Position numbers: made by a program. A DNA stretch of 14,162 nucleotides from a virus. Lineage: Duplodnaviria > Heunggongvirae > Uroviricota > Caudoviricetes. The stretch is taken from IMG/VR virus record IMGVR_UViG_2713896908_000004. One strand, 5' to 3'. Below, in pieces: positions 7,601 through 10,600 of this stretch (position 1 is the first letter of the stretch; every line of letters starts with the position of its first letter).

Positions 7601-10600
7601 CAATAACGCCCACATAAGGCGGTTTTGAGGATTACTCCGCCTGGGTTCTTTAACGTGGACTTCGTGAGGTGACTTGTCGTCGATGGGAAGTGAGAGTATT
7701 GCGTCTATGGCGTTATTTCTGATTGCTTCGTTGCGAAGCATGTATATTTGCTTCATCGAAATTCTTCTCTTTAATTCCAGCGGCTCTGATAGCTTTCATT
7801 ACTGCAATTACCGTTTTGTCTCTCCCATCCTCATAACCCATCGCATAAGCACCTTCTTCACCATCTTTCCAAAAGTCGTCATTCGATTCGGGCCAGTCGA
7901 TATCCAGTTCAATAGCTGCTCGCGATGCCTGCCACGTTTGCCAGTGGCCTTGAACATCGTCCATCACGTATTGACCACCAATATTACCGCTGCCAATTTC
8001 ATGGTGATTTTCAGGGTAACGGATAAGGTCTGAAGATTCGCCCCCACGTCGCAACCAACTTTCTTCAAACTGCTTTCTTGATTCGTCCATCGGTACTTAC
8101 CATCAGTTCAACTCACAAAACGCCACGCCATTTTTGCTACAGCGACAGGCGCAACACCGATAATCACCCACAGGAGAATGCTACCGAAAAGCACACCCAC
8201 CAGGTCTTTACCTTCGCCTACCAACCGGACAAAACAGCCAGCAACCACAATGAACGTCGCCACCATCCACATAGCACCGAGAAGCCTCAATGCAGAGAAA
8301 ATCAACTCAGCCACGATTTACTCTCCCCCAAATAAAAAGGCCTGCGATTACCAGCAGGCCTGCTATCAGCTCAGTGATGTAGATGGTCATCTTTTAACTC
8401 CATATACCGCCAATACCCGTTTCATCGCGGCACTCTGGTGACACTCCTTAAAAATCAGGTTCGTGCTCACCTTTCCTTCCCGTTCTTCTCTGGTAGCGAA
8501 CCGGTAATACACCGTTCGCCAGACCTTACCTTCGATAACCAGAAGACCTGCCCGTGCCATTTTAGCCGCGGCCTGATTTATGCTGGTTACTGTTGCGCCT
8601 GTTAGCGCGGAAACGTCCTGTGCACAGAAGCTCTTATGCGTTCCGAGGTAATGAATAATTGCCTCTTTGCCCGTCATACACTTGCTCCTTTCAGTCCGAA
8701 CTTAGCTTTAATTTCTGCGATCTTCGCCAGAGCCTGTGCTCGATTCAGAGGTCTGCCGCCCATGACAGGAAGTTGTTTTACTGGTTCAGGTATAGTCTCA
8801 CCACGGTTAATTCGTGCTGTCATACAGGTCAGTTCATCGGCAGCCTTGCGCCGTAATTCCGCGTCAGTCAGCGCATTGGCCCGCATGTTCTGGTACAGGT
8901 TGGTAACCAGCCAGTAGTGCGCGTTTGATTTCCACGGATAAGACTCTGCATCCGGATACAGGCCACGCTTCCGGCAATACTCGTAAACCATATCAACCAG
9001 CTCGCTGACGTTTGGCAGTCCGGCGATAACGGATGCTTCTTCCCGGCACCATGCAACAAACTGCCCGGGTGATGGCAGAAATGGTCGATTCTGCCGACGG
9101 GCTACGCGCATTCCTGCGTTAACCTGTTCCATTGTGGTGATCCCGTTTTCCCGGAAAGCCAGAACCCACTGGCGACGGATTTCGTTCACCTCGTTCTGGT
9201 CACGGTTAGCCAGGCTCGCCGGGAAAGTTGCCAGTAACTGGCTGAACACACCATTGATGATCTGCGCTACCTGCTGTACCTGCGGCTTTTCGTCGTACTG
9301 TTCCGGCATGTTGTTGGCGATTCGACGCATCTGCTCACGGTCAAAGTTAACCATCTGTGCGGCGATGTTTTTCATAAATCCACCCCGTAAATCCAGTCAG
9401 TGTTTGTCAGGTCGAGTTTTGGTTTGCTGGCTGTCACGCCTGCCTGTTGCTTGTTACGGTTGATTTCGAGCTGGGTCCACTTGTCGCGGAGTTTGGCCGG
9501 GCTCAGCACGTTACCGGACCAGAAGTTGTCCTGGCATGCCCAGCGGAACAGTACGCACATGTCGCGATGGTTACGTCCGTCACGTTCACGCATCAGGCGG
9601 ATATCGTTAGCCCACCCTGCAAAATTCGGTTTTCTGGCTGGTCGGAGGATTCGCCAGAATTCTCTGACGAATAATCTTTTCTTTTTTCTTTTGTAATAGT
9701 GTCTTTTGTGTCCCCCTGTTTTGAGGGATAGCAATCCCCCAATTTGAGGGATGTTTTATCCCTCGTTTTAGGGGATTTTCCCTCGTTTTGAGGGATACAC
9801 CATTCTGAGATGTTTTTATTTGGTCCAAATATGCCGCCTTGCTGCTTGATAATATTCATTCTGACGAGTTCTAACTTGGCTTCATTGCACCGTTTGACAG
9901 GTAACTTTGTAATCTCGCTAAGTTGAGAATCGGTGATTCTGTCCATTGGTTTATTCCACCCATAGGTTTTACGCAGAATGGCAAGCAGCACTTTAAACTG
10001 TCGCTTGGTCAGATCTGCGCCTGAATAAGCCTCAAGCAGCATATTTGATAGTCTGGCGTAACCATCATCGAGATCTGCCACATTACGCTCCTGTTCGGCA
10101 AAGTTACCTCTGCCGAAGTTGAGTATTTTTGCTGTATTTGTCATAATGACCCCTGTGGATTGATCCAGTAATCCCCTCAGAATTGCATATCAATTTGCTT
10201 AGAGTCCCCGGCGGCCACCGGGGATTTTTTCTTTGTGATTCCATCAAGCACATACTTAAAAGCCCTACTAATCGGACTGATGTCTGATGCCATTCCGAAA
10301 GCACACAAGACCGAAGCAATAAACCGCCAGTCCGTTCTGCTTATCTTCGATTCATGACAGCCAATCATCTTTGCCAGACCTCGCTGTGTAAGCGTTGACA
10401 GGTTGATGAGTAAATCTGTTTCTGCGCGATCAATTTCTCGCTGTGTTGGCTTGCTGTAACTTGCTTGTGCCATTTGTTAATTTTCCTATATTGATATGGA
10501 GTTATAGCGGCATACCCAGTGGATTTGCCGCTGATGTTTGCTCACCCGGTTAGAGGTGAAAGGCCAGAACTGTTAAAGAGCAATTTACTTATGCCGCTTG

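Follow-up and report, generated by a model that had tools for sequence, protein, structure and literature searches.

Genes in the ren-ninB interval

The DNA analysed here, 14,162 nucleotides of the IMG/VR virus record IMGVR_UViG_2713896908_000004 (Caudoviricetes; hereafter, the window), is a lambda-like prophage carrying holin, Q-like, NinI, NinG, Dam, ninB, ren, P, O, cII, cI, N-like, Nun-like and Kil genes. We examined the interval between ren and ninB, which holds the small gene ninA with the terminator tR2 inside it, followed by two accessory genes for proteins of 68 and 125 amino acids (aa) (Table 1). A first-pass annotation had described this interval as a block of three uncharacterised open reading frames (ORFs): a 27-codon hydrophobic ORF overlapping a terminator hairpin, a 68-aa ORF with two transmembrane stretches, and an acidic 125-aa ORF overlapping ninB. 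All three were recovered in the ORF list, on the minus strand and with the limits first proposed, and a PHROG profile search gave a family match for each; none is a chance ORF. The finer points of that description also stood. The TGA of ren and the ATG of the tiny ORF overlap as ATGA, a terminator scan placed the hairpin within the tiny ORF, the 68-aa ORF has two hydrophobic stretches and a predicted helical hairpin, and the 125-aa protein is acidic (isoelectric point, pI, 4.77; 25 D+E vs 15 K+R), its gene overlapping ninB by 44 nt. Conservation as coding sequence, one of the tests that had been proposed, is borne out by the PHROG matches and by recurrence in related loci. The word "uncharacterised" was apt in that a function has been assigned to none of the three ORFs, but the tiny ORF already had a name, ninA.

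The placement of P, ren, ninA and later ninB on the minus strand is that of lambda and P22. The TGA of ninA (8307-8309) sits 5 nt within the 68-aa ORF (GTGGCTGA). The same block occurs, identical, in two further IMG/VR contigs (L007 and L009), and about 60 complete E. coli genomes carry at least 80% of an 801-bp query spanning 7650-8450. A consensus scan of 7200-8800 found no sigma-70-like promoter, which is weak evidence for the absence of one.

Table 1 Features of the window discussed in the text
Feature	Position	Strand	Match or remark
319-aa gene between NinI-like and Q-like genes	4003-4962	+	phrog_2309
Dam-type DNA methyltransferase, next after ninB	6786-7340	-	PF05869
ninB/orf recombination mediator, first "core" nin gene	7310-7756	-	PF05772 (E=1e-48, model positions 1-131); phrog_72
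125-aa acidic ORF	7713-8090	-	phrog_343 (E=7e-34)
68-aa ORF, GTG start	8108-8314	-	phrog_1165 (E=2e-35)
ninA, 27-codon hydrophobic ORF, MTIYITELIAGLLVIAGLFIWGRVNRG	8307-8390	-	phrog_5907 (E=2e-17)
GGGGGAGAG, Shine-Dalgarno-like element	8321-8329	-	directly 3' of the T-tract, GTG of the 68-aa gene 6 nt further on
tR2 intrinsic terminator	8330-8361	-	hairpin AGGCCTGCTGGTAATCGCAGGCCT 8361-8338, T-tract TTTTTATTT 8338-8330
ren, 96 aa, final gene of the replication module	8387-8677	-	phrog_142 "Ren-like exclusion protein" (E=2e-40)
P replication gene	8674-9375	-	ORF list
N-like antiterminator	11790-12125	+	phrog_271
"Nun-like transcription termination factor"	12122-12466	+	phrog_5632 (E=5e-71)

The tiny ORF is ninA and carries tR2

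The first-pass annotation had assumed only a terminator between ren and ninB of lambda. This proved to be wrong: the lambda sequence at this place, ATGACCATCTACATTACTGAGCTAATAACAGGCCTGCTGGTAATCGCAGGCCTTTTTATTTGGGGGAGAGGGAAGTCATGA, has the same hairpin, the same T-tract and the same open frame, and the lambda ORF (MTIYITELITGLLVIAGLFIWGRGKS, 40567-40647) ends in a TGA that overlaps the ATG of ninB. Since the ORF is present in lambda, the tiny ORF of the window is ninA rather than an insertion. The first 22 codons are equal in the window, lambda and P22 save for one conservative change (T10 in lambda, A10 in the window), the hairpin and T-tract are identical and, in the window and in lambda, are followed by GGGGGAGAG, which precedes the ninB ATG in lambda. 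In each case the ORF begins on the stop codon of an upstream replication gene and finishes on the next start codon. The C-terminal tails differ (RVNRG in the window, RGKS in lambda and RGKT in P22), since the gene that comes next is not the same; in the window it is the 68-aa gene instead of ninB.

The hairpin (8361..8338, minus strand) has eight pairs, six of them G-C, and a loop of eight, followed by TTTTATTTGG; the scan takes the T at 8338 as the final base of the stem, and the T-tract begins with that same T. It lies wholly within the 27-aa ORF. The sequence GGCCTGCTGGTAATCGCAGGCC followed by TTTTTATTT is identical to that of lambda and to the published tR2, and exactly this sequence is called "tR2 terminator" in the methods section of 10.1101/042432. 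The order pR-cro-O-P-ren-tR2 is given in PMC3640518, and the efficiency of tR2 in vitro is about 53% according to the literature.

We found the ninA/tR2 cassette in 385 phage records, the majority of which do not annotate the ORF. Among those that do, the P22 reference record holds an 81-nt coding sequence "ninA" (34673-34753, YP_063725.1), which overlaps the stop codon of the helicase gene and the start codon of ninB and contains a feature labelled "terminator; similar to phage lambda"; its DNA is the same cassette. The record of 933W (Y10775.2) carries the label "homologous to ninA gene | terminator", and that of Lahn3 (AJ413276.1) "ninA: putative open reading frame | tR2, early terminator". 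NinA is also named in Sf101, SPN9CC and UAB_Phi20, and ninA and/or tR2 in Y10775.2, AJ413276.1, KJ832078.1, NC_017985.1 and GQ422450.1. In the phage L genome paper, ninA is counted with the other nin genes of lambda and P22, and the ATGA stop/start chaining is described with reference to Kroger & Hobom 1982. The nin5 deletion, which removes ren-ninA-ninI, was carried by the phages of a further study (PMC3349717). Li et al. (PMC4824070) showed the translation start of ninA to be active in a reporter; silencing the ninA ribosome binding site or its AUG restored expression of an upstream reporter, an effect ascribed to non-stop transcripts and trans-translation, and translation reduced the efficiency of termination only slightly, by about 10%. 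Literature searches returned no paper for the ninA peptide sequence, for phiTE_015 or for PF26207 (see below), and none testing a role of ninA in the phage life cycle; phrog_343 drew a single passing mention. The peptide is not listed in the supplements of the Sakai RIBO-seq paper. Taken together, by its sequence the tiny ORF is the already named and partly studied ninA, carrying tR2. Its 27-aa product has a grand average of hydropathy (GRAVY) of 1.23 and one hydrophobic stretch.

A short ORF lying over an intrinsic terminator recalls the leader-peptide attenuators (trp, his, pyrBI), where the position of the ribosome could influence folding of the hairpin, and where transcripts terminated within the ORF lack a stop codon, as PMC4824070 discusses for ninA/tR2. 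In contrast to these, the minimum-free-energy (MFE) fold of ninA/tR2 shows no evident alternative antiterminator hairpin: over 96 nt it contains tR2 and only weak flanking pairs (z = -1.17). Nor are there regulatory codon runs; in lambda, read-through is under N control, and translation shifted the efficiency of tR2 only by the small amount given above.

The lambda ren-ninA-ninB junction was also seen, exact or in one case (L238) nearly so, in assemblies from unrelated taxa (L207, L218, L220, L221, L224, L225, L227-L229, L231, L232, L238, L241-L243), including Pseudomonas, Oceanobacillus, Bradyrhizobium, Psychrobacter, Pseudoxanthomonas and Neobacillus, as well as Shewanella, Nocardioides, Leeuwenhoekiella, Lacrimispora, Paenibacillus and Chromatium. 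Several of these contigs are short, with about 1x coverage in their titles. This looks like contamination of sequencing libraries with lambda DNA.

Limits of the ninA/tR2 cassette in mosaic phage genomes

Viral contigs were collected in three sets, anchored on the 68-aa gene (80), on the 3' arm of tR2 (120) and on an alternative hairpin (107). Homology begins exactly at the ninA ATG, after at least seven different upstream 3' ends that include ren, a DnaB-type helicase and others, two of them diverged versions of one gene. Every upstream end supplies a GGAG-type motif 6-8 nt before the ninA ATG and a stop codon overlapping or abutting it (ATGA, TGATG or TAAATG). The ninA frame begins on this stop codon, 30 nt ahead of the hairpin. 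Downstream, homology stops either after GGGGGAGAG or after the ninA stop, and about nine different genes follow. Among them are ninB of the lambda type; members of the 68-aa family, which fall into two well-separated forms and one variant that is more distant (L151); a protein of 108 aa whose N-terminus is hydrophobic; members of the PF26207 family starting from GTG or ATG; a 71-aa DUF7301 protein; ORFs of 90, 60 and 65 aa; and a Shimwellia gene. The ninA stop lies between -4 and +8 nt from the next start in all 12 downstream contexts, against 5 of 24 for the other two frames, and the next start lies 26-29 nt past the stem GGCC in 10 of the 12. This stop/start geometry is the coupling arrangement that one would predict for a nin chain with ninA as a translated link.

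A second, HK97-type cassette (L252-L358, e.g. L265 825-849; also L235) has the same first ten ninA codons, followed by the hairpin GGGCTATTTACACAGTAGCCC and T6. The frame remains open through this hairpin, giving 32 aa (MTIYITELITGAIYTVALFYWIKNEGDPDGHR). A scan for the hairpin region with degenerate codons recovered hardly any loci beyond those of the exact scan, and a genome-wide scan for the first eight ninA codons returned mostly chance matches and lambda contaminant contigs.

Single contigs depart from the common geometry. A 2-nt insertion in a G-run gives an earlier ninA stop (L060), and a 1-nt deletion moves the stop to 20 nt beyond the ninB start (L102). In P0075 the peptide sequence suggests the loss of one base in the tR2 T-tract, fusing ninA in frame to a PF26207 gene (116-aa prediction). 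The slot after ninA/tR2 is filled by varied small proteins with hydrophobic N-termini, namely the 68-aa family in its two diverged forms and proteins of 108 aa (L097, L155, L091) and 90 aa (L112, L125). Finally, the sequence GGTAAGTACCGATGG (window 8091-8107), which precedes the start of the 125-aa gene, precedes a different gene right after the HK97-type hairpin in L264 and L271, and may be another conserved recombination joint.

Constraint on the ninA frame

We compared codons 2-10 of ninA, ahead of the hairpin, across the cassettes. The distinct variants of lambda-type cassettes comprise 9 synonymous and 5 non-synonymous changes, the latter all conservative; the synonymous excess (p=0.003, or p=0.01 when corrected for transition bias) is absent from the other two frames. 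A first estimate from such data had suggested strong purifying selection on NinA (omega ~0.2), which we downgraded when the HK97-type cassettes did not replicate it. The placement of start and stop is conserved, and translation probably is too, while the signal for constraint on the amino-acid sequence is weak.

These observations bear on whether ninA is a selected dual-coding element, acting as a translational bridge across the terminator or as a "non-stop" tag. The case for this is that every junction variant has its start placed on the stop codon of the gene before, its hydrophobic frame open across either type of hairpin, and its stop placed on the next start. The opposing view is that ninA is an accidental ORF, arising from a G+C-rich hairpin and a T-tract, of which only the terminator is conserved while neither peptide nor translation is selected. 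The composition of the cassette lends itself to this, as the hairpin GGC CTG CTG GTA ATC GCA GGC reads G-L-L-V-I-A-G and the T-tract L-F-I-W, and most GenBank records leave ninA unannotated. Several of our own counts also weigh against a selected ninA and against the conserved link of which it would be part. Among 104 HK97-type cassettes, codons 2-10 hold 2 synonymous and 7 non-synonymous changes, including one nonsense change; the ORF is broken in 6 of these 104 loci (a one-base deletion in codon 2 in five, GAG>TAG in one); pooling the two types gives 9 synonymous vs 10 non-synonymous changes, a marginal result (p 0.04-0.10); and at HK022-type junctions (9 of 188 cassettes) the upstream stop is joined directly to the hairpin, which is kept while codons 1-10 of ninA are lost. 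An accidental frame would, in contrast, hardly be expected to have its mosaic boundary exactly at the ATG, well ahead of the hairpin, after each of the upstream 3' ends, with a Shine-Dalgarno motif and a stop supplied every time; to close at the next start in every downstream context; to stay open where the HK97-type hairpin replaces tR2; to show its synonymous excess in the ninA frame only, as in the lambda-type cassettes; or to have a start that is used in a reporter. We therefore regard the accidental origin as rather unlikely. The selected dual-coding element is itself a tentative proposal, possible but doubtful on the present counts, and the 25-32-aa peptide might be a functional membrane micro-protein in its own right. 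If the non-stop tag were true, transcripts terminated at tR2 would be led to decay mediated by transfer-messenger RNA (tmRNA), making the N-dependent switch sharper.

A gene for a predicted 68-aa membrane protein behind tR2

The 68-aa ORF aligns along its whole length (residues 1-68) with positions 1-68 of 68 of phrog_1165 and corresponds to HK022_58 (gp58) and to a hypothetical protein of mEp213. A search of 5.8 billion proteins gave 199 relatives, nearly all of 68 aa; the 120 relatives listed are 85-96% identical, and their named sources are all Escherichia or Salmonella. The frame is intact in all 108 DNA copies compared (omega ~0.46, p=0.0035), while in the alternative frames 9 and 2 stop codons would have arisen. 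The protein is strongly hydrophobic (GRAVY 1.55), with hydropathy windows spanning residues 4-22 to 46-64, and its AlphaFold2 (AF2) model is a helical hairpin (H2-32/H37-66) with a predicted local distance difference test (pLDDT) score of 85. On this model, the product is predicted to be a two-helix inner-membrane protein. A sequence search of the PDB returned only an inovirus coat protein (E=0.44), and a Foldseek search of BFVD with the models of the 68-aa and 125-aa proteins returned only uncharacterised phage proteins. We also considered a pinholin-like holin, which we rejected for the lack of a PHROG lysis match and for the position in the early operon.

The gene lies directly behind ninA/tR2 in every locus. 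In HK022 (HK022_58/HK022_59) and mEp213 (XSB40829/XSB40830) the same pair of genes follows the tR2 hairpin directly and in the same order, annotated as hypothetical proteins between the helicase and ninB, and the DNA of HK022 is 97% identical over window 7912-8361. HK022 differs from the window in that its upstream stop abuts the hairpin, leaving ninA without its first 10 codons, in that HK022_59 has 318 nt against the 378 nt of the gene in the window, and in an extra gene, HK022_60, ahead of the ninB-like gene.

The 125-aa protein, a probable member of the modular PF26207 family

Homologues 96-98% identical to the 125-aa protein carry a precomputed PF26207 label, and one RefSeq copy is named "phiTE_015 family protein". 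A scan of Pfam and NCBIfam gave no match for any of the three ORFs, in a Pfam copy from which PF26207 is absent. Membership in PF26207 is therefore probable by way of the precomputed labels of the homologues, an indirect route that weakens the assignment. The family is narrow, with 26 clusters at 50% identity among 1.84 billion representatives, and modular: variable N-terminal modules, sometimes after a CxxC...CxC segment, are followed by an invariant W-x-x-W-Q-A-S-R core and by interchangeable C-terminal modules ending in AIRAAG(I/L)KVK. In an alignment of 44 sequences W53, S56 and G105 are invariant, and at least 90% of the sequences share W50, A55, R57, A59, E61, A104 and K107. The 125-aa protein contains both the core (W-x-x-W-Q-A-S-R-A-A-I-E) and the C-terminal A-G-(I/L)-K motif. 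In its AF2 model the N-domain (1-60) has a pLDDT of about 90 and the remainder is poor; the C-terminal module, with 13 D+E in 51 residues and a pI of 4.3, is poorly ordered. A sequence search of the PDB with the PF26207 profile gave nothing, and Pfam/NCBIfam scans of fused or extended relatives gave only noise. Two long proteins, P0251 (1929 aa) and P0253 (1194 aa), match residues ~31-56 (GSGNIGGQY...) in 7-9 repeated stretches (E~1e-9 to 1e-7), probably a repeat or low-complexity resemblance.

The protein of the window departs from the family ending, because its frame runs into the 5' end of this ninB allele: it ends ...IKEKNFDEANIHASQRSNQK, and the last 14 residues are the 5' end of ninB read in another frame. 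The ren-ninB interval of 933W and other Shiga-toxin (Stx) phages, which reads ren, ninA/tR2, a 92-aa PF26207 gene, DUF7301, Lar and ninB, is informative here. It shares with the window the ninA/tR2 cassette and the ninB allele, its PF26207 protein carries the C-terminal module seen in the window (89% identity over residues 50-121), and the gene before ninB again reads a 44-nt overlap into a tail "...SQRSNQK". Unlike the window, it has no 68-aa gene, its PF26207 gene follows ninA directly from a GTG start, and two additional genes are present, those for DUF7301 and Lar (PF14354, E=7e-10). Since the tail SQRSNQK (window 7713-7756) also ends the unrelated Lar protein of an Stx phage (L003 1564-1607) with the same ninB allele, it is a by-product of the junction.

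This bears on the idea that the PF26207 protein assists the NinB/Orf recombination mediator as an accessory factor, as its proximity to ninB might suggest: ninB lies at most 1.5 kb downstream in all 80 loci of a PF26207-anchored set, PF26207 lies between tR2 and ninB in 29 of 88 tR2-anchored loci, and in the window the two genes overlap. The overlap is, however, the junction by-product just described, common to Lar; other genes often intervene between PF26207 and ninB; and PF26207 is paired with several ninB alleles only 33-45% identical to that of the window. Moreover, NinB of lambda and P22 functions without PF26207, and ninA is followed directly by ninB in half of the tR2-anchored loci (44 of 88). 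We consider such a NinB helper very unlikely.

The accessory genes assort independently

Architecture was counted in the 88 tR2-anchored viral contigs with enough downstream sequence. Neither accessory gene is present in 51, where ninA leads to ninB either directly or, in 7, with unrelated genes between. Both are present in 15, PF26207 without the 68-aa gene in 14, and the 68-aa gene without PF26207 in 7; in one contig none was detected. In line with these counts, 21 of 68 loci of the set anchored on the 68-aa gene lack PF26207, and 17 of the 80 PF26207-anchored loci lack the 68-aa gene. Since all four combinations of presence and absence occur, the two genes are no obligate pair. The 68-aa and 125-aa genes are separate optional accessory genes that assort independently. 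Weighing against this, they are positively associated in the 88 contigs (odds ratio ~8), so that a functional link may exist; the association can be explained by linkage within the same small slot. The three-ORF block of the first-pass annotation thus dissolves: ninA/tR2 is shared with lambda and P22, the additions relative to lambda are limited to the 68-aa and 125-aa genes, and the partner requirement on which the grouping had been made to depend does not hold, as each of these two occurs alone.

The same annotation had hinted at a toxin or an exclusion function, and a small hydrophobic peptide, or two, next to an acidic protein could in principle make up a module that is toxin-like, a toxin-antitoxin pair or a means of superinfection exclusion. 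Hydrophobicity is indeed strong in the 27-aa and 68-aa products, the 125-aa product is acidic, the 68-aa and PF26207 genes co-occur above chance (15 both, 7 and 14 alone, about 52 neither), and no function is assigned to any of the three. The tiny peptide also resembles type I toxins and other small hydrophobic peptides (Hok, TisB, Ibs) in its size, single hydrophobic helix and basic C-terminus. It differs from them in being embedded in an operon and overlapping both neighbours, and in having neither a promoter of its own that we could detect nor a match in a defence library. None of the three ORFs had a PADLOC match at E≤1, and the scan of 7200-8800 described above found no promoter-like site. 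The ninA of lambda and P22 has no such partner, the 68-aa and 125-aa genes are each found without the other, and the ninA region lies within the nin5 deletion of working lambda strains. Exclusion and toxin-antitoxin genes are normally expressed in the lysogen. Genes downstream of tR2 in an N-dependent operon would, in contrast, not be expected to be expressed from a repressed prophage. A toxin or exclusion module is therefore extremely improbable, and the region is mosaic in the ordinary manner of a lambda-like prophage.

A proposed translationally chained junction in the early-right operon

The interval is likely to be the junction between the replication and nin modules of a lambda-like early-right (pR) operon, in which the ninA/tR2 linker is followed by two optional delayed-early genes in a translationally chained arrangement. 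In this scheme, RNA polymerase would halt at tR2 unless modified by N, so that genes downstream of tR2 would be expressed in the delayed-early lytic phase. On read-through transcripts, ribosomes would begin at the ninA AUG on the upstream stop, translate through the hairpin and end on the start codon of the next gene, handing translation on in an ATGA-type chain typical of nin regions. Into the slot between ninA and ninB would have been inserted the 68-aa gene, for a putative inner-membrane helical hairpin, and the 125-aa gene, for a predicted soluble, acidic, modular protein. The products of these genes should be delayed-early and N-dependent because they belong to the pR operon of a prophage that encodes an N-like gene, with tR2 upstream and no promoter-like site between, and both genes should be dispensable because they are absent from lambda and P22. 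We infer N-dependent expression, translational coupling, membrane insertion and dispensability for this prophage from these features.

The state of the prophage itself speaks against expression of the scheme in the window. The O gene (9372-10144, minus strand) has 97-99% DNA identity to lambda O. It has lost 127 bp between the two copies of a 12-bp direct repeat, CAGCCAGAAAAC (nt 505-516 and 632-643 of lambda O), a deletion that breaks it up into two frames, 9593-10144 and 9372-9734. Barring an error of assembly, the prophage is probably defective in replication, and with a frameshifted O the accessory genes may be silent here. The N-like and Nun-like genes are adjacent and overlapping, and the presence of both in one prophage is unusual. 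The 319-aa gene resembles a moron-type insertion; its E. coli relatives are annotated as lipid A deacylase LpxR family protein.

What the accessory genes might do can be considered in terms of the slot that they occupy. An islet for early-lytic anti-restriction or anti-defence functions is one such proposal, in which PF26207 would be a nucleic-acid mimic or defence inhibitor and the 68-aa protein would counter a membrane-based abortive-infection or exclusion system. The 933W-type slot, with PF26207, DUF7301 and a Lar-family restriction-alleviation protein, points in this direction, as do the Dam-type methyltransferase after ninB in the window, the very acidic and poorly ordered C-terminal module of the 125-aa protein, the modular and fast-changing nature of PF26207, as is often the case in counter-defence genes, and the several small proteins with hydrophobic N-termini held in the slot after ninA. 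This is an argument from neighbourhood only, and sequence and Foldseek searches found no similarity in sequence or fold to a known anti-restriction protein; we judge the proposal unlikely. By default, the 68-aa and 125-aa genes are given unspecified accessory or host-interaction functions, which we rank above counter-defence, a NinB helper or a toxin pair.

Implications

Every element of the interval is already represented in annotated phages and family libraries, and the arrangement of an ORF over a terminator is already named and has been the subject of a reporter study; the locus is thus of little significance for new biology, and a false lead is removed, in that there is no toxin or exclusion block. 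What is added is the quantified regularity of ninA start and stop over mosaic contexts, together with a weak peptide constraint. The slot behind tR2 is a hotspot of small optional genes (68-aa proteins, PF26207, DUF7301 and Lar) and is a reasonable place to search for early counter-defence functions. ninA/tR2 itself is a sharply bounded, near-identical linker whose ORF limits coincide with mosaic joints, and this cassette bears on how lambdoid modules recombine yet stay translationally chained.

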